Origin: a virus | Strand: one strand, 5' to 3' | DNA length: 24,689 nt | Virus genome (UHGV): UHGV-1601690 | Part shown: positions 695-18,458 of the stretch, piece after piece | How positions within the stretch are numbered: position 1 is the stretch's first letter | Layout of the letters: every line of letters begins with the position of its first letter | Program-made: the position numbers and the translations under genes | Notes under the pieces: model-generated | The model's database searches: none | Told to the model about the DNA's origin: nothing | Seen by the model: the letters and a program-made list of their open reading frames with translations, nothing else

Positions 695-3600
695 TTATGC
701 GTATTGTTGGATGACGGCCAGAACGTCCGCCACGTTGTGTTTTGTCTCGATAATCCACCAGTTGCCCGGGAAATCGCTGTTCTTCGCCTTCGCTGGCAGC
801 CAGCGAGCGCCGAATTTCGCCTTGATTGCGTCTTTCGCACGGAAAAGAACGCCTTTCATGCCTGAGGCTTCCTGAAGCCCAAATACCTCGCCAGCGGCGA
901 ATTTTGGTGCGTACATCATCTTCAGGTCGGCGGTGGATACGCGATAATTCAGACCAAGAGACTGAGCTATGCTGGTGGCATCACCCTGTATTGATGATAA
1001 CTCTTCTTGTTTCTCGTTTCTGGCGGCAATTTCTTCCTCCGTGATGTTGCCAAGGGCCAGGTTTATCCGATCAGCGTCGGCCTGTTTCTCTTCATCGGTG
1101 CGCCCGGCAAGAACCGTGTTAATTCTCTGCAATATCTCCACATGATTCTTGCGCATGCTGAGCAATTCCGGCGTAACCTCGTTAAGATCCACCAGCCCAA
1201 GGATGGCAAGGTCGGAAAACATTGATACCAGGTTGTAGGTCATGCGATAGCTGAGTTGGCCATAGGCTGATGGCAACTGCACCGCATCCATTTGATAGGC
1301 ATCCATAAATTTAGAGCCGTCGTTTACGACATCCGCAATTGCAGGTGTGATTTTCCCTGTGGTGGCGGCCTCCCTGATTGCTGTTACCCACGATTGAGTC
1401 AGTGCGGCGACTGCATGATTCAGATTGGCTTCCCGTTCTGCTGCGATGCGCGCGCTTGCTGCGTCCATTGCCTGCTTGATCTCGGCTTTATTGCTGTAAA
1501 TGCCAATGGTGCCAAACTGTGCTGTGGTGATCTCATAATCTGACGCCCGGAACTCATGGGTACCGAAAATGGCATTGGTGACCTCAAGTTCAGAATCCCC
1601 GTTACGAGTAGCCCCCTGGCTTGTTTTCTCCGGCATTTTTGCGATCGCATCCGCTATTTTCTCCTGAATTGCTTCAGGGGATAGCGTATCTCCGTATGAC
1701 GCGATTACATCGCCATAATTGGAGCCAAACAATTCAACCAGGAATGTTTCTGCCGAACGGATCTGGCGGTTATTCCCTTCCGACATCATACCAAGCACCC
1801 ATTTTGCAATTGACGACTTCAGCGCGCCGTCACGGCGATCCGGGTAAACCGCATGCTTCAGTGGGTCCGTATAGGTACCAACAAAATCAATGCTATAGCC
1901 TGACTCTGTAGTCTGAACGCCGTATGAGTCAGTGATTTTGATCATGCCGCGCTGCTGGAAACGGTAGAAATCGTCACAGGAAATGATGTCGTTAATCCCG
2001 GCGATGGAGACGCCACCACTGATTTTCTGCATAACAGCATCTTCATCGGGAGTTACATCCACCTGTTTATCCAGCGTCTTCACATCCCAGTTACCCGATT
2101 TGGTGCCTTTGAAGGTAAAGATGATCTCCACATCTGCGCGCTGGCTGTCGAAGTCCAGCGACTTAATGCGAACGATATCACCAGCACAATCATAGTATTG
2201 GCCTACACGCCATGAGCGATCGCCGATAACAAGGAACTCACTCGCATGGTTAACCAGGTCAGGATCAACATCCAGAATGCCTTTATTTATTGCATCCTCC
2301 ACCAGCGGGCGCAGGCGTTTGATATCCGTCGCGGCCTTCTGAGTACGGTTCAATAATTTCTCATAGCGGGAGATGGCTTGAGTGATATTAGCCTTGCGCT
2401 GAATGGCGCTTTTCAACGACGCGCGATACTGTGCTAACAACGTACGGTCTGTGTGATGGACGCTACCCCAGCGGGCCTTCCAGTCTGCATTATCAGCTGC
2501 TTTGGCCATTACCGCCTGTTTGAATTTAGCTACCTCGGCGGTGGTCTTTTCAAGTTCCGCTTTACTTCGCTCTAATTCAGCGGTAAGAGCCGCAACATCC
2601 TCGCCAGCTGCATGTTGCGCCTTGATGTAGTTCTGAAGGTCGATAGCGGCCTGTTCTTTCTGGCGGGCGCGTTGCACGGCTTTCGCCTTATCCATTTGAA
2701 CCTGCATCATTGCCAGACGTTCGCCATCATCCTTAGCGGTATACATCTGCATTTCGATCATATCGTTGGCGTCGGCGTTCTCCATTTCTGACTTATCTGA
2801 ACGGAGGATATCGGAGATCCAGCCTGCTTTACGCTTCAGCGTCTTCAGTCGGTATTCATCGAAAGAACCCTTGCCGCAGTAGTAGTGAACGCGAACGCTT
2901 GCACGGTTGGAGCCAACTCGGGCACCGCGACCGTTTCGTTGCGCAATACTGGCTGGAGTCCATGGCAACGTCAGATGATGGATGTCAGTCGTTCCTCGAT
3001 GCAGGTTGATTCCCACCTCTGCCTTTTTGTTGCAGATGATGATCGGAGTCCGGCCCTCCTGGAAGTCGGCTGCAATCTTTTCCAGACCGCCCAACGACAT
3101 TTCATTTTGCTGCGCGATATAGGCGTCATACAGAGCCATTTGCTCGTTGTATTTCGCTATCTGTGCATCTGTTGGTTCATCCGGTAACTCTTTCGGCGGT
3201 TTAACCGCTTTCAGTTTCTTACCGGTTTTACCTGCCTCGGCAACCGTCTGAGCATTCAGTATCCCCACCTTTGAAGGTTCAAGGTTAAGAGCATTGCAGA
3301 TAATGCGCTTGAGCTTCTGGTGCTGCGTTTTTTCATCGGTGAAGATGATTTGCTTACCTTCCGGGAAAAACTCCTTCAGCGTGGCAATCAGCTTCGCGTA
3401 TTTGGGCGTAACGGGGTGAGTTACGGTCTGTTCGTCAATGCCAAACCTGGCCAGGCGCTTATTCACTTCCTGCTCGAACGCTTCCGGAACCTGCAACTGA
3501 ATAAACTCGCCCTTATCTATCAGGGAGTATTGCGATTGCTGCGTGATTGAATCATCACTGTCGTCGTCTTCGCTGGTGGCTTGTTTAGGCAAACTGTCCG

Positions 3601-6600
3601 CCAGCTGCTGCACCGCATCGGCGTACTCCGGCAGGAAACGATAGGTGATCCGGCGATAGTACAGGTCCATGTCAGTACATACGCGGTCCATATCCCTGAT
3701 TATTGAGAAGATCGGACGGGCTTTCTCGTGCTCAATCACGCCGTCTTCATTGACCGAGGTCGTTACGCCATTGTTGGCTTTGGCCGCCGCTTCCGCCTGC
3801 TGACGCAATTCTTCATACGCCGCCAGTTGTTCTTCAGTAAGTGGTGCATCCTGCTGGTGTTCGTCCAGCTCCGGGATCTCCACGGTATCCTTAACGTCTT
3901 CCGCCGTTTTAAGCGTTACCCAGCGATGGAATATACCGCGCAGCGCATCAAGGTTTTCAAAGCCCACCAGCGCCATTTTTTCTTCAACTTCACCGCTAAT
4001 TTTCTGTACCGTTTCCAGCCTGGTCTTGCCGAAGAATTTAACGAAGTCATCAGGACCGTAGATCCCCATGTTCTGCCAGTATTCCTTCGGCAGAACATGA
4101 GAAAGCATGTTGTATGCATCGATCGGGGTGTTAACGACTGGCGTTGCAGTCAGGAGAACCGGCCCGCGCCCACCATTCTTTTTCATCAGGTACGCGTTTT
4201 TAATTGCCATATCTCGCGCCGATTGCGCCACCGCGCTGGTGGGCAGATAGGCCAGTTGTGACGCTTCGCGACCATTTTTATAGCTATTGCGGTAGTTGTG
4301 ACCTTCGTCAGCGATCACACTATCGAAGCCCATATCCTCAAAGTACGGATACTTCTCTGCTTTTTCGGTGCCGGTATCTGAATACTCCGACAATACCCGG
4401 CGACGCGCGGCCTCTTTGCGGTGGGAGTCGGAGTCCATTGCGCTGGCTACGCGTCCAGCGGCAACGAAGTCATAAAGCATATCCTGTGCATGCTCATCTA
4501 CGGTGTCATCACGTAGCGGAATGCGGGCGTATTGTTCTTTGGTAAACACGACTGCACGGTAATTTGAGTGCGGGATCGCGTTCATCCGCGCCGTGATAGT
4601 GGCTTCATCTGCCAGCTTAAGAGCATCGCGCATAACTGGAGTGCCATCAGTACCAAGAACAGGTTTACCGTTCTCATCGAGCACCTGCACCTGGCGAATC
4701 TGATCGCCATCCATCAGCACATCAAGACCGACGAACAGGTAGTTACTGAATGCCTCTTCACTCAGGAATTCTTTTGCTTCGTAATACCAGTTTTCCAGCA
4801 CTGATTTAGGCACTACATACGCAGTACGGGTGGAGCGACCGTTCTCATAGTTGAACGCCTCAAGCGCCAGCGCGGTCGTGGTTTTACCCAGCCCGGTGCC
4901 GAAGCCCAGGATGCCGCGCCCATCTTCGGACAGTCGGCGCACCTCGCTATTCTGGTAATCAAATGGCTGGCGCTTACCGCTTAATCCCTTCAACCCAAGC
5001 GGATCGCCAGAGTGTTCATACGGGATATTGCTATTGAACACATCGTTGTATTTGGCAACCAGCTCATCGTAGCGATCGTGCGTCTTGATCCACTTATTGA
5101 ACTGGTCCTCAAGCAGTGCCATCTGCTCGCGGTAGCCGTTCGCCGTCGCGCTATCTTTGCCACCGATACGCGCACCATTGAGATACTTTTCCAGCTGTGC
5201 CGGGAACCCGGTCGCGTTTTCACCTGATTTACGGTCCCACTCGTAGCGAATCTCACCTGTTTCTTTATCCTTGCGCTGGACGACACCGTATCGGTGCCCG
5301 ACGAACAGACCATCACCACCGTGATAGGTGTCAGAAACCATTTCGTCGCCTTCCAGCTGCACTGACTGCACATAGCGCAGATCCGGATAGCCGTTTTCCT
5401 GCAAAAATTCCAGAATGACGGAACGGTCGAACCAACGGCTATTGAGCTTAAACCGGATATTCTCTGCTGGCGTCTTGATGCGCTTCTCTTCGATAGCTGC
5501 CAGCTGATTAAGGACGTTGTTCTTTACTGGACCGTCGGGGAGTGTGGCGAGGAATTCCTGTTTTGGAGCCACTATCTCGTTAATGTCGCCGCTGGTGGCG
5601 CGGGCGAACGGAACAATCCCGCCATACGGTGAAACCGCAATACCAGGGGTGCTGGCCAATAAATTAAGCAACTCTTCATCACTGGCTGGCAGTTCGCCGG
5701 TAAACGCAAGGCGGAAATCATCGAGCTGGATTGGATCGCGGGTGAGATCGCTATAGAGATAACGCAGGGTGTCCTGATAGCTGGTGGAGTCATAACTTGC
5801 GCTGGAATCATGCGTAACCAGCTTCCCTGTCAGCTCGTCAGAAATAGTGCCATCCAGCTTAATTGCACCACGGAAAGCAAACCAGGCGCGCGCACCGCTC
5901 CCCGACAATTTCGCTATCGGACCGCGACCGGGGTTACCAAAACGGTCAATCTCTGCCTGCAAACGGGATACCAGAGAAAGGCGCTGCTGTTCGATTTGTT
6001 CAGCACTATGCCCGGCGGCCTTCATGTCCTGATATTCAATTAACATCCGGCCAATCATCGCCCCGCGATACAAGCGTTCACGGTATTTTTCAGGCTGGCT
6101 GTTAATCCAGTCCACCAGCTGCACCATATCGTCGCTGATTGATGTGGTGTACTTATCGCGGACATTTGCCATCTGGGTAAATGTCATGCCGAGACGGCCT
6201 TCTGTTGTAGTCAGGTTACGCTGAAGAGCCTCCCAGCTATCCGCGCCATAACTGGCAGCATCGATCTTAAGTTCCTTCCCGGCATCAGCTTCAATCCAGC
6301 GACCACCAGCATATTTTTGCCATACGCCATTAATCAGGCGCATTTCCCCTTCACCAACAACGTCTGCGGTCGGTGACGGTTCAGCCATATCGAGCAAAGA
6401 CCAGTCGATACGGCTTTCGAAACGATGAATCAGCTTCGCTTTAAGAGCCTGGTTATCAATCTGACCGTCGGCACGAACCTCAATACGCCCCTGGAAGCCC
6501 TTTTCCTGGGTGCCATGAACAAACCGGCGGCCGTCCTTTTCAAACCACTTGCCAGAAATAAACGTTGGCCAAAGCACATTTGCCGATTCGAGAGTGCTTT

Positions 6601-7462
6601 CATCCACCAGGGGGATTTTCTCAGCCATCTCTGCCGGATGTTTGCGCATCAGCACCACATCAACAACTGTACTGGTCCCGTTTGCGTCAAAAGTACCGGT
6701 AGGCAAGCGGTGGGCACCAAGAAATTCAGCTTTCCGTGATAGGCGCAGGCGTAACCGCTTCATGTTTGAACCTGAAACAATGGACGGCGGCACAATCACG
6801 CACATGAATCCGCCTGGCTTTATCTTGTCCAGCATGCGGAGCATGAAGTAAGAACCCATGTCCGTTTCTTCTGCGTAAGGCTTATCGATGTTGCGTGTGT
6901 TATCACGACCACCGAACGGAACGTTACCCACAACATGGTCGAATGAATCGTTAGGCGTGCTTACAGCCAGTTGTTCGAACGGAGAAATCTGTACGCTGTC
7001 TTCCGGGTGCAACAGCTGGTTTATACGACCGGAAACACTGCTGATCTCAGTCGCGGTCATCACCGTACCAACCGGTTTTGTCTCATTAAAAACGCCGGTT
7101 CCCGCCGATGGTTCCAGAGTGTTACCTACGTCCGCGCCGTAGAGCTTCATGATCTCCCAGACACCTTCAGCGATCGGCTTTGGTGTGTAATATTCGGAGA
7201 CGGACCCGCCAATGCCGCCTTCACCGGTGTACCCAGCCAGGATCTGGCGCTGTTCATCTGTCAGTGTCGCGCCGTCCACCAGCGAATTAAGCAAATCTAT
7301 CGCCTTCTGATTCGCCTCACGGCGCAGTCGGTCATAGCTTTTGCCTTCCACCTTTTCCACGCCGTATTTAATCGGCGCTCGGTGAGATGTTATTGCCCTA
7401 ATGTATTTCAATATTTCGCTGACACTTGAACAGCGAAACACCCCCATATATAGCTTGTTCAT
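695..7462 (-). CDS. darB: DarB-type giant anti-restriction protein: N-terminal N6-adenine methyltransferase domain fused to an SF2 helicase
   Basis: Single 2255-aa ORF, the length I recall for P1 DarB. ATG at 7460-7462 preceded by AAGGA. Methyltransferase motif I EPSAGTG (about 7090-7120) and motif IV GNVPF (6914-6928). Helicase motif I GFGTGLGKTT (4877-4906), motif II DEGH (4298-4309), plus TATP and QRNGRGAR motifs further on. Confidence 0.9.
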   Translation of the reverse strand: MNKLYMGVFRCSSVSEILKYIRAITSHRAPIKYGVEKVEGKSYDRLRREANQKAIDLLNSLVDGATLTDEQRQILAGYTGEGGIGGSVSEYYTPKPIAEGVWEIMKLYGADVGNTLEPSAGTGVFNETKPVGTVMTATEISSVSGRINQLLHPEDSVQISPFEQLAVSTPNDSFDHVVGNVPFGGRDNTRNIDKPYAEETDMGSYFMLRMLDKIKPGGFMCVIVPPSIVSGSNMKRLRLRLSRKAEFLGAHRLPTGTFDANGTSTVVDVVLMRKHPAEMAEKIPLVDESTLESANVLWPTFISGKWFEKDGRRFVHGTQEKGFQGRIEVRADGQIDNQALKAKLIHRFESRIDWSLLDMAEPSPTADVVGEGEMRLINGVWQKYAGGRWIEADAGKELKIDAASYGADSWEALQRNLTTTEGRLGMTFTQMANVRDKYTTSISDDMVQLVDWINSQPEKYRERLYRGAMIGRMLIEYQDMKAAGHSAEQIEQQRLSLVSRLQAEIDRFGNPGRGPIAKLSGSGARAWFAFRGAIKLDGTISDELTGKLVTHDSSASYDSTSYQDTLRYLYSDLTRDPIQLDDFRLAFTGELPASDEELLNLLASTPGIAVSPYGGIVPFARATSGDINEIVAPKQEFLATLPDGPVKNNVLNQLAAIEEKRIKTPAENIRFKLNSRWFDRSVILEFLQENGYPDLRYVQSVQLEGDEMVSDTYHGGDGLFVGHRYGVVQRKDKETGEIRYEWDRKSGENATGFPAQLEKYLNGARIGGKDSATANGYREQMALLEDQFNKWIKTHDRYDELVAKYNDVFNSNIPYEHSGDPLGLKGLSGKRQPFDYQNSEVRRLSEDGRGILGFGTGLGKTTTALALEAFNYENGRSTRTAYVVPKSVLENWYYEAKEFLSEEAFSNYLFVGLDVLMDGDQIRQVQVLDENGKPVLGTDGTPVMRDALKLADEATITARMNAIPHSNYRAVVFTKEQYARIPLRDDTVDEHAQDMLYDFVAAGRVASAMDSDSHRKEAARRRVLSEYSDTGTEKAEKYPYFEDMGFDSVIADEGHNYRNSYKNGREASQLAYLPTSAVAQSARDMAIKNAYLMKKNGGRGPVLLTATPVVNTPIDAYNMLSHVLPKEYWQNMGIYGPDDFVKFFGKTRLETVQKISGEVEEKMALVGFENLDALRGIFHRWVTLKTAEDVKDTVEIPELDEHQQDAPLTEEQLAAYEELRQQAEAAAKANNGVTTSVNEDGVIEHEKARPIFSIIRDMDRVCTDMDLYYRRITYRFLPEYADAVQQLADSLPKQATSEDDDSDDSITQQSQYSLIDKGEFIQLQVPEAFEQEVNKRLARFGIDEQTVTHPVTPKYAKLIATLKEFFPEGKQIIFTDEKTQHQKLKRIICNALNLEPSKVGILNAQTVAEAGKTGKKLKAVKPPKELPDEPTDAQIAKYNEQMALYDAYIAQQNEMSLGGLEKIAADFQEGRTPIIICNKKAEVGINLHRGTTDIHHLTLPWTPASIAQRNGRGARVGSNRASVRVHYYCGKGSFDEYRLKTLKRKAGWISDILRSDKSEMENADANDMIEMQMYTAKDDGERLAMMQVQMDKAKAVQRARQKEQAAIDLQNYIKAQHAAGEDVAALTAELERSKAELEKTTAEVAKFKQAVMAKAADNADWKARWGSVHHTDRTLLAQYRASLKSAIQRKANITQAISRYEKLLNRTQKAATDIKRLRPLVEDAINKGILDVDPDLVNHASEFLVIGDRSWRVGQYYDCAGDIVRIKSLDFDSQRADVEIIFTFKGTKSGNWDVKTLDKQVDVTPDEDAVMQKISGGVSIAGINDIISCDDFYRFQQRGMIKITDSYGVQTTESGYSIDFVGTYTDPLKHAVYPDRRDGALKSSIAKWVLGMMSEGNNRQIRSAETFLVELFGSNYGDVIASYGDTLSPEAIQEKIADAIAKMPEKTSQGATRNGDSELEVTNAIFGTHEFRASDYEITTAQFGTIGIYSNKAEIKQAMDAASARIAAEREANLNHAVAALTQSWVTAIREAATTGKITPAIADVVNDGSKFMDAYQMDAVQLPSAYGQLSYRMTYNLVSMFSDLAILGLVDLNEVTPELLSMRKNHVEILQRINTVLAGRTDEEKQADADRINLALGNITEEEIAARNEKQEELSSIQGDATSIAQSLGLNYRVSTADLKMMYAPKFAAGEVFGLQEASGMKGVLFRAKDAIKAKFGARWLPAKAKNSDFPGNWWIIETKHNVADVLAVIQQYA

Positions 7463-12530: not shown

Positions 12531-12547
12531 ATTGCTCTAATTAATTT
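12531..12547 (+). promoter_or_regulatory. Candidate P1 C1-repressor operator 20 nt upstream of ssb
   Basis: ATTGCTCTAATTAATTT matches the remembered C1 operator consensus ATTGCTCTAATAAATTT at 16 of 17 positions. It overlaps the expected ssb promoter. Confidence 0.45.
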
Positions 12548-12566: not shown

Positions 12567-13055
12567 GTGGCACAACGCGGTGTAAACAAAGTCATCCTGA
12601 TTGGTACCCTGGGGCAAGACCCGGAGATCAGGTATATACCAAATGGCGGAGCGGTCGGAAGACTCAGCATCGCAACGAATGAATCATGGCGCGACAAGCA
12701 AACGGGCCAACAGAAAGAGCAAACAGAATGGCATAAAGTCGTTTTGTTCGGAAAACTTGCTGAAATTGCGAGTGAGTATTTACGAAAAGGTTCTCAGGTC
12801 TACATCGAAGGGAAACTTAAAACCCGTAAGTGGACAGATGAGGCCGGTGTAGAACGCTACACGACGGAAATTATCGTCAGCCAGGGCGGCACCATGCAAA
12901 TGATCGGCGCTCGCCGTGACGATTCACAGTCCACAAATGGCTGGGGGCAATCAAACCAACCTCAAAACCACCAGCAATACAGTGGCGGCGGTAAACCTCA
13001 GAGCAACGCCAATAACGAACCTCCAATGGACTTTGAAGACGATATTCCATTTTGA
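12567..13055 (+). CDS. ssb: Single-stranded DNA-binding protein
   Basis: 162 aa, GTG start. OB-fold N-terminus [20 protein letters not shown]...[14 protein letters not shown], Gly/Gln-rich linker, acidic tail ending DDIPF as in E. coli SSB. Confidence 0.93.
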
Positions 13056-13106
13056 GAGGGCTGAAAGTTGCTCGATTACTTAAAAATAACTTTACCTAAT
13101 TGGTGT

Positions 13107-13132
13107 AAAAAAATGGGCGCAACAAAGCGCCC
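13107..13132 (-). terminator. Rho-independent terminator downstream of the porin gene
   Basis: Stem GGGCGC / loop AACAAA / stem GCGCCC (13115-13132); on the minus strand the stem is followed by a run of seven T (13107-13113). Confidence 0.6.
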
Positions 13133-13188
13133 CAACAATAGAGTTTCAAATTAATAAAAGGGTAATAAATAACATGAAGTTAAATTGA

Positions 13189-13303
13189 GAAGAGGCAATT
13201 TTATTGCCTCTTCAAAGGTGGCATGAGGGTGCCACCTATATGCGGGCAGTGACATCACTCCCTTCCCGCATATTCTTACCTACCAAAATTAGAATTGGTA
13301 GGT
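13189..13303. repeat. Cluster of four perfect inverted repeats in the porin 3' region
   Basis: GAAGAGGCAAT-TTT-ATTGCCTCTTC (13189-13213); GGTGGCA...TGCCACC (13217-13236); ATATGCGGG...CCCGCATAT (13238-13273); ACCTACCAA...TTGGTAGGT (13278-13303, spanning the porin stop). Confidence 0.6.
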
Positions 13304-14436
13304 CATACCAACAGCAACGATGTTGTCGGTTGCAACCTCAGATGCTTTGGTAAATTCACTTTCATCAATCAGGTTGATCTTGTAGTCAACGAAAGCGGAC
13401 ATATTTTTGTTGAAGTAATAAGTCGCGCCTACGTCGATGTATTCAACTAGATCCTGGTTACCGAACGCACCAATATTTTCACCGCGAGAGTGCAGGTAAG
13501 CGATGGACGGACGCAGGCCGAAATCAAACTGGTATTGAGCAACAGCTTCAAAGTTTTTCGCTTTGTTTGCGATAAAGTCATCACCGAAGACTGTCATATT
13601 CTGAGTTTCAGAATAAGTTGCAGCCAGGTAAATGTTGTTTGCGTCATATTTCAGACCAGTAGCCCATACTTCAGCTGTTTTACCAGAAGCATTCAGAGAG
13701 CTTGCATTAGCATAGGATACCTGTCCATCAGTACGGTCAGATTTTGCATAAGTTGCGCCAATGCCAAATCCTTCATAATCATAAGTAGCTGACAGACCGA
13801 AGCCATCACCATTAGATTCAACTACGTCGCGGCCTTTCCAGTTGTTCACTTTTGCAGCACTATCATTTTTACCCTGATACTGCAAAGCAAAGTTCAGACC
13901 ATCAACCAAGCCGAAGAAATCATTGTTACGATAGGTCGCGACGCCAGTAGCACGCTGGGTCATAAATACATCAGTCTGAGTCCAGGTATCTCCACCAAAC
14001 TCCGGCAGCACGTCAGTCCAAGCGCCAACATCATACGCTACACCGTAGTTGCGACCATAGTCGAGCGAACCATAATCGCCAAAGCGAAGCCCTGCAAACG
14101 CAAGACGAGTTTTGTCTTTATCAGAACCTTCAGTTTCAGTACGGTTACCTTTAAATTCGTACTCCCACTGACCAAAACCGGTTAACTGGTCATTAATCTG
14201 AGTTTCACCTTTGAAACCAAGACGCATGTAGGTCTTGTCGCCATCTTTAAACCCATACGAGCATAAGTTTTATCCCCGTCATCACTAGCTGAAGAAGAGA
14301 AGTAATGCTCTGCATTAACTTTGCCGTACAGATCCAGTTTGTTACCGTCTTTGTTATAGATTTCTGCCGCTTGTGCAGACATTGCCATCAGGACTGATGC
14401 TGCAACCGCAGAAAGTGCCACTGTGATTTTTTTCAT
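13289..14436 (-). pseudogene. OmpC/OmpF/NmpC-family general porin (phage-borne cargo), interrupted by a frameshift
   Basis: Signal peptide plus mature N-terminus ([40 protein letters not shown]...) in ORF 14182-14436; remainder of the barrel to the C-terminal ...VGMTYQF in ORF 13289-14227, in a different frame. Confidence 0.85.
14210..14280. repeat. Diverged 35-nt direct repeat at the porin frameshift
   Basis: Minus-strand copy A gacggggataaaacttatgctcgtatgggtttaaag ([12 protein letters not shown]) is followed directly by copy B gatggcgacaagacctacatgcgtcttggtttcaaa ([12 protein letters not shown]). The copies differ mainly at third codon positions, and the 35-nt offset shifts the frame. Confidence 0.7.
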
Positions 14437-14547
14437 TTTTTTGCCCTTTAGATTGAACTTTTCAGTAGAAAAGAGGTCACTGCGGACAAATGTTTATCTT
14501 TTTTGGATTCGTGTTTCAAGTTTTGCAAATAAAAATCAAGGTATTTT

Positions 14548-14563
14548 TGTGATCAAAATCACA
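14548..14563. promoter_or_regulatory. Perfect CRP (cAMP receptor protein) consensus site upstream of the porin gene
   Basis: TGTGA-TCAAAA-TCACA, both half-sites perfect with a 6-bp spacer, about 112-127 nt upstream of the porin ATG inside a roughly 740-bp AT-rich non-coding block (14437-15175). Confidence 0.45.
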
Positions 14564-15175
14564 AATAATAACCTTGAAAACCCAATGGACTATTAGAAAA
14601 ATCTCAATTCACAGAATAAAAATTGACAAAATAGAACAAAACACAATCAACAATAAGCACAAAAGACAAACAATTAAATTAGCACAAAAATAATAACTGC
14701 AAAAATAGATAGCCTGTTAATTAATAGGGTTTTAATGGATGTGGATTTGAAATCTACTTAAAAAGTAGAGTCAAATTAATTACTGTCGATTGGGTATTAA
14801 ACTGAATCTATATTGTGAGAGTTAAAGACGATGTGTTTTAGTTATACATGTTATTCCCTAAAATGGAGTAGTCTCATCGAATTCTGATTAATAACGAGCT
14901 AAGCCAATTCATTTTAGTATGTGTATATCTTTACCCTCTGAATATGCAATGACGAAGAGATATTAAACAATATGTAGCTTCAGGATTGACTCTGGAAGAA
15001 TTAAAAGATCGGCTAAAGTGTTCAATATGTGGTGAGCGAAACGCAAAAATTAAAATTTTTTGATCTAACATATTAGGCAATAGCTTGCTTCCATAACCTA
15101 AAGCAAGCCACTACGCGTTTACTTTAAGTACACAATTAACATATCAGAACAGATTATTTGTGCACTATCAGGGAG

Positions 15176-15481
15176 TTAATATACGATCTGGTCTACATGA
15201 TCCCCAAAATCATCGTCGTCCTCATCGCCACCCTCTACTGCTGGCCAATCGACAAACCAGCCAGCGTAAAGATGCAGCGTTCGGAGAACATCACTTGCGG
15301 GAGCATCAAGGGTGTTAACGAATCCCATATAGCTATTGGGATTTGCCCCAGCTATGGCTTCAGCGATCATGTCCTCGGTAATGTCACCGGAGATAATGCT
15401 TAAACGCCCGGAAACTTCTTCATTATCATCAAATTCGATAATGGCATCTCCGCCTAATGGCGCTGCGATTTTAATCTGCAT
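15176..15481 (-). CDS. Very acidic 101-aa protein, last gene of the darA operon
   Basis: Start overlaps the ddrB 3' end by 11 nt. About 22 Asp/Glu against 3 Lys/Arg; C-terminus EGGDEDDDDFGDHVDQIVY. Confidence 0.6.
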   Translation of the reverse strand: MQIKIAAPLGGDAIIEFDDNEEVSGRLSIISGDITEDMIAEAIAGANPNSYMGFVNTLDAPASDVLRTLHLYAGWFVDWPAVEGGDEDDDDFGDHVDQIVY

Positions 15482-18458
15482 TATTTAGCTCCTTTGCCAC
15501 ACCTAATAACAGTTCCAGCAATCCGTCACCATTCATCAGTGATGCGGCAGCGGCCTCTTTGTCATGATACAACTGAAGAGCCATAGAGAATACTTCCGTT
15601 GCTGATGTTTTTGAAATAGTCGGTGCTTTCTGCCGAATTTTCCCGGAGTTACTCACTGAGGCTGGCGGGTATACCTTCGCCATATAAATATTACTCAATC
15701 GAGATCTGAAGCACCATTCAGGCTTGCCACGCCCACCGATATTGACGAAAGATGGCTTATCCCCTTCAACATTGGCCTTCAGGAATGATCGGGCTTTCTC
15801 TAACAAACCAGGGTTACTGTACTCAAGATGATGACCCAGCTCGTGCCACAGTGCACTTGCATTTTCATCGTTCAAATTGACAGCAACAACACCATTAAGA
15901 TTTGCATATGCCCTTCCCTGGTGGTGAACCACCTTTGATAAGGTCGAAATTTTACCGCCGGTCAGGCGATAAATATCAGCAAGTTCCTTGCGCAGGTCTA
16001 TCCCACCATTCTGTCCAGCGCGGGCTTCTTCCACTTCTTCCGTGATAAAAGAGTCGGCCCACTCAAGAGCTTTTTCTTCAGATACGGATGAGTTTGCGAT
16101 CGCACTGTTCATGGCAGATAACACTTTCTCGTGGACCGAACCCATACTTCGCTGATTCATTTGCCAGCGTGTCTGCGGGTTATATGAGAATCGCTTAAGT
16201 AGTTGGTCAAGCTGCTCAAGTTCTTCTTCACTGACATACCTTTTAGCCTCACCAATAATGCCAGGGAGAATATTGCCGTTAGGATTAAACGCTCGCGAAA
16301 GGAAGAGTTTCAGCGCCCCCATGCCCTCCGATGCTTCAATATCACCAATAACCCGGTTAACAATGGCCGCACTCTTCGGATTAGCATCCGCCAACGCTCT
16401 GGCTACAATTTGCAGGGACGATACGACCTCACGCTGCATATCCGTCCTGATCTCATCAATAAACTCTGGCGTTATGCCGTGCTCTTTAAGGATATCCCTG
16501 CCTTCCGCCGTTACCCCATCGATATCACCGACATGTTTATTAACCCGACTTTGCAATGCCTTAAATGCCTTCAGAATTCCACGGGCATCATCCGCTTTAC
16601 TAACGGCCTTCCTGAATGCTGGCAAGAAGTCTGAGTTAACCTCATTTTGTTGATCGGCCCACTGAATGGAGGCTTCTTTCATCTCGTCCAGAGTCAGATC
16701 ACCCAACGCAGTATGGTCTGTGAATATGAGCGACAACCTCTGAACCATTTCTGCCAATGGTGATGCCGAATGCGCCGCGCTAAGGAATGCTTTCACCCTG
16801 GTTGGGCGAATGGAAAACCAGTCAATAGCTGGTGGCATATCTCCGTTTTTTATCGCCTGCGCTATCTCGTCAAAGCCATCGCGCCCAAGGGAGGATGCGT
16901 GATTTAACAAGCCGCGAAGTAACGAATTGCTGATACCGAATAATCGGCACCATTTTTTCACGTCGGCAACAGGCATTCGAACAAAATGCGCAAGCACTTG
17001 TACAAGCTGTTCATCTTGGGGATCTGTACGGGAAAGCAGCCTGATCAGATGAATAATGTCTTTGATGCCGGATGCCCGATGTAATAGCAAACTGGTATAT
17101 GGAGCAACACCGTTGTAACTACCGCCGGAAACGGACTCGAAAAGACCGCCGGATATCCCTTGCATGCCTTCGTTTTCCAGTTCCTGAGACACCTGGCGAA
17201 GGATATCCTGTAACGACACATCACCACCGCCAAACATATCCCCCAGCGCCTGGCCCTGGTGCTGTAACTCATCATTGATACGTTGAGCCATCAATTTAAA
17301 AGCGGTGGCCATACGCTTCGCGCTACGGTTATTCGCGACGATGAACAACGCGAGAGCTTTCACTTCCGGGGCTGTTTCGCTGAACATATCCCCCTGAGCA
17401 ATAACATCGGTAATATGTTGGCCTGACTCCTTCGATTGCCTTACCAGGTCTACCGCATCTTTCAATGCCGCCAGCGCCTTTTTATCGAGGCTATCCGCTG
17501 TCTCAATGCCATCAACAATAGTTGTCACAGCCTGCTTGTGCGCTTCTCCTGATAAAGCCTGCATCTGGACAAAATCATTGGCTGCCGCATTAAGCGCCGT
17601 CAGAACATTACGCATATCCGGATCAGCTTCTTCTGCAACCATCCTTACCAGGCGCGCATCCTTATATGCCTTGGCAAAGATCGCGTTTTGTATACGGTCT
17701 ACAAGTTGCCGTGTTGGTCGCCCATCTTCCGTTACAAGGCCAGCAGCCTGTGTGGCACCAACTTGCGTCATGAATCCGCGAATAAACGCGTCATTACTGC
17801 GGCTAAGCAGATCTCCGCTTTCTGATGGGTTAAACAGCGCCATCATCGCCGGAGTTATGCTGTCAGCATCAACAAAAGCCTTTTCACTGGCTGCCATTTC
17901 CTGAAGATCAGAAATATTTGAGTCCTTGGCAAACTGAACGCGGTCAACCTTAGTTAACCGGCGGCGCACCAGTACCGGAGCCGCCATTGATTCAACCTTT
18001 TCAGGTCGTATGCCGAATTCGGTCGCATGATCAATCAGGTACTCACGATACCGATCCGCATTGCCGTCCTGATAGGCTTTGATGATCCCCATGGTCCGTC
18101 CATTACCTGACTCAACGGCATTGTCCTCACCAATTATCGGCGCGCCATGGCTGGATAAACCGGAATCGGTAAGCTGGGCAGGACGCAAATCCTTGGATAT
18201 CTGGTTGACCTGAAGAAGACTGGATGCGCGGGTCCGGTCGCGCGGCTGAAGTTCCTGGGGATAGTCAGGGTTAATTTTCCCGTCCAGAGTATTGGATACC
18301 AAAAGAGCTGAGGCATCGACGATATCAAACGCTGTTTTTACCTCGTCTCCCTTCGCTGTCACCACATACGAAACCCGCCCGTAATTGGGCAGGTTTTTTA
18401 GCAGCTCGATCAGCGTTTCTATGCTGGTGGCCATTACCACCTGATCGCTTAAGCTCAT
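15471..18458 (-). CDS. ddrB: DdrB-like large Dar accessory protein
   Basis: 995-aa ORF downstream of ddrA in the darA operon; size and position match remembered P1 DdrB. Contains an HELGHH (HExxH) motif at 15828-15845. Confidence 0.75.
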   Translation of the reverse strand: MSLSDQVVMATSIETLIELLKNLPNYGRVSYVVTAKGDEVKTAFDIVDASALLVSNTLDGKINPDYPQELQPRDRTRASSLLQVNQISKDLRPAQLTDSGLSSHGAPIIGEDNAVESGNGRTMGIIKAYQDGNADRYREYLIDHATEFGIRPEKVESMAAPVLVRRRLTKVDRVQFAKDSNISDLQEMAASEKAFVDADSITPAMMALFNPSESGDLLSRSNDAFIRGFMTQVGATQAAGLVTEDGRPTRQLVDRIQNAIFAKAYKDARLVRMVAEEADPDMRNVLTALNAAANDFVQMQALSGEAHKQAVTTIVDGIETADSLDKKALAALKDAVDLVRQSKESGQHITDVIAQGDMFSETAPEVKALALFIVANNRSAKRMATAFKLMAQRINDELQHQGQALGDMFGGGDVSLQDILRQVSQELENEGMQGISGGLFESVSGGSYNGVAPYTSLLLHRASGIKDIIHLIRLLSRTDPQDEQLVQVLAHFVRMPVADVKKWCRLFGISNSLLRGLLNHASSLGRDGFDEIAQAIKNGDMPPAIDWFSIRPTRVKAFLSAAHSASPLAEMVQRLSLIFTDHTALGDLTLDEMKEASIQWADQQNEVNSDFLPAFRKAVSKADDARGILKAFKALQSRVNKHVGDIDGVTAEGRDILKEHGITPEFIDEIRTDMQREVVSSLQIVARALADANPKSAAIVNRVIGDIEASEGMGALKLFLSRAFNPNGNILPGIIGEAKRYVSEEELEQLDQLLKRFSYNPQTRWQMNQRSMGSVHEKVLSAMNSAIANSSVSEEKALEWADSFITEEVEEARAGQNGGIDLRKELADIYRLTGGKISTLSKVVHHQGRAYANLNGVVAVNLNDENASALWHELGHHLEYSNPGLLEKARSFLKANVEGDKPSFVNIGGRGKPEWCFRSRLSNIYMAKVYPPASVSNSGKIRQKAPTISKTSATEVFSMALQLYHDKEAAAASLMNGDGLLELLLGVAKELNNAD

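Follow-up and report, generated by a model that had tools for sequence, protein, structure and literature searches.

The closest described counterpart of the promoter treated here is PnmpC of Escherichia coli K-12, located in prophage DLP12, for which activation by Crp through two operators and repression by OmpR, IHF and MprA have been described (PMC11677980). The previously reported G start of PnmpC was confirmed by 5′RACE in that study, where the deleted promoter segment runs from −199 to −1, counted from the nmpC start codon (PMC11677980). Additionally, nmpC is among the known CRP targets listed in PMC3105977, and transcription of the Salmonella porin gene ompD is described in PMC5137417, citing Santiviago 2003, as activated by CRP. 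A porin gene on a temperate phage is also present in the lambdoid phage PA-2, whose lc gene is expressed from the prophage; PA-2 belongs to a different phage family from the P7-type element described below, with which it shares this kind of carriage. Protein 2 (Lc) of PA-2 is reportedly subject to catabolite repression, as told in the Schnaitman literature of the 1970s–80s.

The second described system is the slot between ssb and hxr in P1-like elements, which in P1 itself holds isaA, IS1 and isaB. It is named RD-2, one of five hot-spots of variation situated mainly at boundaries between average-GC and AT-rich loci, in PMC6906374, and variable region 2 in PMC9603915. The accounts of the slot in these two papers concern the same low-GC place with differing cargo and give its gene content; the mobile cassette, the P7-type filler, the IS1-target homologue and the isaB scar described below come from the present analysis. 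Earlier publications already cover CRP control of NmpC/OmpD porins as well as the variability of this P1 slot, and the current understanding of either is unchanged; what is now assigned is the function and origin of a 740-bp gap that carries no annotation in P7 or in the P7-type records examined.

The DNA analysed, here called the window, is a single-strand representation of 24,689 nt from virus genome UHGV-1601690. It represents a P1-like phage-plasmid of the P7 type; over 13000–15600 its identity to phage P7 (AF503408) is 98.8 %. The gene order in P7 is ssb, nmpC (the porin), an unannotated gap, odaA (the hxr homologue) and prt (the ddrB homologue). The interval under study, 14437–15175, is 99.9 % identical to the unannotated P7 gap and 95.8 % identical to phages JL22 and phi456, and it is at least 99 % identical in 37 E. 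coli records, the matching places being mostly plasmid-borne. Its right border is formed by the hxr/odaA homologue (15176–15481, minus strand), the last gene of the darA operon according to the ORF list and the P7 and P1 annotations. A sequence-only reading had judged the interval AT-rich by eye and free of ORFs of 60 aa or more. Both observations hold: GC across 14400–15200 is 0.255–0.34 in 200-nt windows, versus 0.42–0.53 in the flanks, and the longest ORFs are of 57 aa (14423–14596, plus strand), 49 aa (14931–15080, minus strand) and 39 aa (14574–14693, plus strand). No small ORF in the block is kept across the seven P7-type variants. A 39-aa ‘gp17’ annotated in JL22 was considered as a conserved ORF and rejected, as it is not common to the seven.

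The part of the interval next to the porin (14437–14627, minus strand) is alignable at the DNA level with PnmpC, and both lie upstream of NmpC-family porin genes; the intact P7 porin protein is 81 % identical to K-12 NmpC and 97 % identical to the porin of a chromosomal island in E. coli SCEC020001. A CRP-type site with an exact core, TGTGATCAAAATCACA (TGTGAT-N4-ATCACA), occupies 14548–14563, precisely where the sequence-only reading had placed a perfect CRP consensus, at 119 nt from the ATG. In K-12 nmpC the corresponding site, AGAGATCTACTTCACA, is found 118 nt from the ATG. The −35 element CTTGAAA is identical in the two promoters and stands 36 nt from the CRP site in both, and both leaders begin with GCAGTGAC. 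Thus the −35, the leader and the CRP position expected of an NmpC-type module are shared, with protein identities of 80–97 %. The two promoters differ in that the CRP core is perfect here whereas K-12 nmpC has AGAGA...TCACA, in their carrier (a P1-like phage-plasmid here, a lambdoid prophage in K-12) and in that nothing is shared upstream of about −120. The second Crp operator of K-12 and its OmpR, IHF and MprA operators were not located in the block, OmpR being sought by eye only and against an approximate consensus; the IHF core WATCAANNNNTTR has no match in the whole window. The porin-proximal DNA is a diverged homologue of the Crp-activated PnmpC of DLP12.

Resemblance to ompD is more distant. 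The OmpD-type porin belongs to the same subfamily as the porin treated here, which has 73 % identity to the homologue of Salmonella enterica subsp. arizonae, but the Salmonella ompD upstream region has no DNA-level homology to the P7-type promoter, and at OmpD-type loci the best CRP-like sites carry 2 mismatches and lie ~150 nt from the ATG. Such sites are TCCGATCAGGATCACA and GGCGATCTTGATCACA, in Enterobacter sp. RIT637 and S. enterica subsp. arizonae. Likewise, the porin upstream regions of other genera (80 loci) show no DNA homology and only scattered CRP-like sites with 2 mismatches.

The interval had also been described as the slot of IS1 in P1 and proposed as a possible cargo hotspot, and the comparison of relatives bears out both points. 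The slot, positioned between ssb and hxr/ddrB as RD-2 is, differs in content among P1, P7, JL22, SJ46, RCS47, Ro157c2YLVW, pHNBY4G-2, the MEW plasmid and p15.03CC_1. Its cargo is isaA-IS1-isaB in P1, the porin in the P7 type, hypothetical genes plus isaA in SJ46 and Ro157c2YLVW, and blaSHV-2 and IS26 in RCS47. In relatives the block itself attracts insertion sequences at three places. IS1 (IS1B, then IS26 and IS100) adjoins it at 14583 in a plasmid of a gull E. coli (NZ_JCATIJ010000003.1, 3148–3900), ISApl1 with mcr-1.1 adjoins it at the equivalent of ~14771 in p15.03CC_1 (NZ_AP027471.1, 1–2500), and the IS1 of P1 sits at the homologue of 14940.

The 739-bp interval is likely to be a mosaic of three pieces with different histories. 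Piece A (14437–14627, minus strand) comprises the 5′UTR and probably CRP-activated promoter of the porin and is shared with porin loci in chromosomal islands; piece B (14628–14920) is AT-rich noncoding filler, specific to P7-type P1-like elements by its database matches; and piece C (14921–15175) is P1 backbone by alignment to P1. What looks like one long control region is, in this reading, no more than the juxtaposition of three unrelated AT-rich pieces.

The boundary between the first two pieces is drawn by the chromosomal islands. The island of E. coli SCEC020001 matches the window at 97 % over 13065–14218 and at 90 % over 14242–14627, and three further islands match it from 13080/13108 up to 14552–14619. 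The left limit (13065–13108) falls just beyond the ssb stop (13055), and homology outside P1-like elements ends at 14552–14627. Because the island homology spans the terminator, the porin gene and 191 bp upstream and then stops, the mobile unit is a cassette of ~1.5 kb (13065–14627, minus strand), in which the 191-bp module moves together with the porin gene and its terminator. Such a compact unit of gene plus promoter is common to phage-plasmids and chromosomal islands. The porin-bearing islands are flanked by IS3, IS66, IS5, IS1 and TnpB remnants. The intrinsic terminator, GGGCGC-TTTGTT-GCGCCC followed by a run of seven T, was found by the terminator scan at 13115–13132 on the minus strand, 157 bp 3′ of the porin stop and within the island-shared cassette.

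The sequence-only reading held that the porin had come with a long, catabolite-responsive control region. That it came with a promoter of its own is upheld; the length is not, as only ~191 bp moves with the gene elsewhere. A single control region of the whole ~740 bp, which arrived with the porin and in which the distal A-tracts, repeats and hairpin serve catabolite or H-NS control, would be in keeping with the uniformly low GC of the block, with the constant company of pieces A and B in P7-type elements and with a conserved island inside piece B. Such an arrangement is nevertheless improbable, given that homology with other porin loci breaks off at the cassette end, that the relative cut by IS1 at 14583 keeps only the CRP site and promoter beside an intact porin, and that all of 14921–15175 is backbone present in P1, which has no porin. 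The hairpin that the single region would include moreover falls within the darA-operon terminator of the P1 record AJ000741, as detailed below, and is stable only as minus-strand RNA.

In P1, IS1 is flanked on both sides by a 9-bp duplication, TGCCCTCTG, and P1 from which IS1 has been subtracted aligns with ~14921–14952, a backbone stub that contains the homologue of the IS1 target, TACCCTCTG, at 14932–14940. The IS1 slot of P1 is therefore represented inside the block. IS1 was also considered as the exact boundary of the cassette and rejected in that role; it is a simple insertion that duplicated 9 bp and lies ~20 bp within the shared backbone. Immediately beyond the stub, at 14953–14954 (junction 14952/14955), comparison of junction sequences with those of relatives reveals a deletion scar: 609 bp are gone, and with them PisaB and the first two-thirds of isaB. 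The deletion is common to the window and P7; in pHNBY4G-2 and E. fergusonii plasmids the same porin and AT block are followed by an intact isaB of 606 bp and then by hxr. What is left of isaB here (14955–15063, plus strand) is its last 36 codons, RDIKQYVASGLTLEELKDRLKCSICGERNAKIKIF, and the stop, with 89–94 % identity to the 3′ end of P1 isaB; its frame was set by comparison with the isaB coordinates in P1.

Between this remnant and the hxr stop (15176) lies the structured 3′ end of the darA-ddrA-ddrB-hxr transcript (15078–15166, minus strand), which folds into hairpins at 15078–15113 and ~15122–15166. As minus-strand RNA, 15064–15175 folds at −34.5 kcal/mol (z = −4.0), while the plus strand reaches z = −0.7; the hairpin at 15078–15113 alone has 14 pairs on the minus strand, −17.1 kcal/mol and z = −4.4. 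An 8-bp-stem hairpin noticed earlier at 15084–15110 and counted there as part of the porin control region is present, its Watson–Crick stem being 15083–15090/15101–15108, 1–2 nt off those ends. Its assignment to the porin fails: in AJ000741 the counterpart of this region, as far as the hxr stop, is annotated as a ‘terminator’, and because of this match and its stability as minus-strand RNA only, the hairpin is assigned to the 3′ end of the darA-operon transcript. The hairpin at 15078–15113 has no U-tract, its tail being CUAAUAUG, and so fails the textbook definition of an intrinsic terminator; the terminator scan gave 0 matches in the block. The annotated terminator may work in another way or may only stabilize the 3′ end. 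Placed as it is, the structure separates the porin promoter from the late darA-operon transcript and could have an insulating role.

Piece B is confined to one kind of element. The query 14624–14931 matches 104 PLSDB plasmids from Escherichia, Klebsiella and Salmonella, and all of those whose surroundings were examined are P7-type P1-like elements. Likewise, P7-type flanks are found in 18 of the 18 IMG/VR contigs that hold the conserved core of piece B. No DNA like piece B occurs beside porin genes in 80 other species, and no donor was found in PLSDB, complete E. coli genomes, IMG/VR or a set of one genome per species; outside the P7 type the donor search returned only a weak low-complexity match to Cedecea. 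The A-tract and ACAA-rich repeats earlier noticed at 14620–14700 are real but weak, consisting of a degenerate tandem repeat at 14629–14689 (23-bp unit, 2.6 copies, 76 % matches) and a few imperfect direct repeats of 13–21 nt. The GC content of the block, 26–34 % and well below the host average, is the composition looked for in H-NS-silenced foreign DNA. The analysis turned up no function and no regulatory feature for piece B, which is probably only a spacer, a likely substrate for H-NS to judge from this composition, and a soft target for insertion sequences.

A feature of piece B for which the term filler does not account is an island of 60 bp at 14793–14852, with 3 variable columns among the seven variants versus 15–40 % variable columns around it. 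No recognizable promoter, ORF, RNA family or operator was seen within the island. Its conservation could mark piece B as an unannotated functional element, namely a divergent small RNA (compare micF at ompC and micC at ompN), a distal promoter or a platform for phage or host-factor binding. Divergent small RNA genes beside porin genes have precedent (PMC5745476), and the sigma-70 scan found one plus-strand promoter-like match, at 14574–14602. This is, however, fewer than the 3.7 expected from shuffles, and the features that define a MicF/MicC-type RNA are missing: the Rfam scan of 14300–15300 at E ≤ 1 returned a mir-153 noise match only (E = 0.89), no site resembles a terminator, and none of the ORFs is conserved. 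Few lineages are available, moreover, such that the island could reflect recombination history. An element of this kind is accordingly rated as improbable. A slightly better, though still small, chance is given to the broader proposal that piece B, and the island especially, may be functional as an H-NS-type nucleation site or binding platform that sets porin expression in the lysogen and doubles as a landing pad for IS1 and ISApl1-mcr-1. Were this so, it would provide a mechanistic explanation for the ssb–hxr slot as a cargo hotspot. A hairpin at 14751–14770 (z = −4.1 in the window) was considered as a conserved structure and rejected, one of its pairs being broken in the other six variants.

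The exact CRP core of piece A, TGTGA-N6-TCACA, has a single match in the 24.7 kb, versus 0.03 expected, and at least one match arose in 3 of 100 shuffles; with one mismatch allowed there is 1 match versus 0.83 expected, which is not above chance. The porin-proximal 220 nt were aligned from nine sources, comprising the window, two P7-type variants, four chromosomal islands, K-12 DLP12 nmpC and E. albertii. Invariant in all nine are the right half-site TCACA, CTTGAAA, part of the −10-like region, GCAGTG, AGTTCAA and the start codon. When seven independent lineages are compared in pairs, identity averages 0.81 for the half-sites, 0.42 for the 6-nt spacer and 0.43–0.49 for the 20 nt flanking the site on each side. 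Indels elsewhere leave one spacing untouched: in 9/9 sequences the CRP site is centred 36 nt from the T of TTGAAA. Among the seven P7-type variants 14437–14568 is 90–100 % invariant, and conservation falls directly upstream of the CRP site.

Retained half-sites around a variable spacer, at a fixed distance of 36 nt, form the footprint of a functional, phase-locked activator site, and the site at 14548–14563 is very probably functional. The sequence-only reading would have been contradicted by loss of the site in homologous porin upstream regions; it is instead conserved across seven lineages. In the SCEC020001 island, whose porin is the closest relative on a chromosome, the site is degraded to TTTGATTATGATCACG, so that strict conservation is not universal. 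That the perfect palindrome is merely a chance product of AT-rich, low-complexity DNA with no regulatory role is highly improbable, for although the block is A/T-rich, the spacer of the site is AT-only and the one-mismatch count is at expectation, the exact core is far rarer by chance, the half-sites persist in the seven lineages even though the flanking 20 nt have diverged by more than 50 %, their distance from the −35 never varies, and CRP is documented to act on the homologous K-12 promoter (PMC11677980, PMC3105977).

The site stands before a core promoter that appears too weak to fire well without an activator. The predicted −35, TTGAAA (14514–14519, minus strand), lies in a CTTGAAA that is invariant in 9/9 and has 5 of 6 consensus positions. 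The predicted −10, read from the sequence at 14490–14496 on the minus strand, is AAACAT with an 18-nt spacer or TAAACA with a 17-nt spacer; either has 3 of 6 consensus positions, the GAT.A..A columns are conserved, and the element scores too low to be called in the strict sigma-70 scan. That scan called no minus-strand promoter in the block, which counts as negative evidence, though it is expected for an activator-dependent promoter. The predicted 5′UTR, placed by homology and spacing, is 47 nt long (14437–14483, minus strand) and begins at the invariant GCAGTGAC with G 14483 as the predicted start; GCAGTG is invariant in the nine sequences and 14437–14483 is nearly invariant among P7-type variants. 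If transcription starts at this invariant G, a position that rests on homology and spacing, the centre of the CRP site is at about −72.5. Sites for class I activation by CRP are centred near −61.5, −72.5, −82.5 or −92.5 from the transcription start. The predicted −72.5 would therefore be a class I position, provided that G 14483 is the start.

Taken together, piece A is the porin's own promoter, probably responsive to sugar starvation through CRP. When glucose is low, cAMP-CRP would bind 14548–14563 and recruit RNA polymerase via the alpha C-terminal domain. Control by the C1 repressor of P1 was considered and rejected, as the C1 operator consensus has 0 matches in the block; in the whole window it matches only 12531–12547 and 7392–7408. 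The match at 12531–12547, the nearest to the block, differs from the consensus at one position and precedes ssb, at the place of the Op(ssb) annotated in P7; the one at 7392–7408 has three mismatches. Since no C1 operator is present in the block, the porin promoter should be active in the plasmid-prophage state, that is, in the lysogen. P7-type lysogens are thus predicted to alter their set of outer-membrane porins with carbon supply. A switch of this kind could have consequences for how permeable to antibiotics and how sensitive to phages the hosts are, and these hosts often carry mcr-1 or ESBL genes as well.

In the window itself the promoter is found without an intact product. The NmpC-family porin gene (13289–14436, minus strand), delimited by ORFs and by alignment to P7 nmpC and the JL22 porin, is frameshifted by a private 35-bp insertion at ~14219–14253, which splits it into ORFs of 84 aa and 312 aa; the frame shifts after codon 61 and a stop follows codon 84. 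If the insertion is real, the gene is dead. Neither P7 nor JL22 has the insertion, nor does any matching complete E. coli genome, any matching PLSDB plasmid or any of the 18 IMG/VR contigs. It encodes DGDKTYMRL in codons that differ from those of the neighbouring repeat-like sequence, and a 24-mer inside it is identical to part of an Enterobacter OmpC-type gene. These two properties give it a templated appearance, and it looks like either a patch templated from a paralogous porin or an assembly artefact. Separately, in two P7-type IMG/VR contigs homology begins only at 14306, and the porin is interrupted or truncated there. The description of pSvP1 in PMC6906374 places an IS10 in its nmpC.

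A further observation concerns the start of the porin coding sequence. Codons 5–7 (14416–14424), ACAGUGGCA, pair at every position with the 5′ seed, GCCACUGC, of RybB, a sigma-E small RNA. The pairing has an energy of −13.9 kcal/mol, a value equalled by 5 % of shuffled leaders. K-12 nmpC, a reported RybB target (PMC3333887), has the same pairing sequence.
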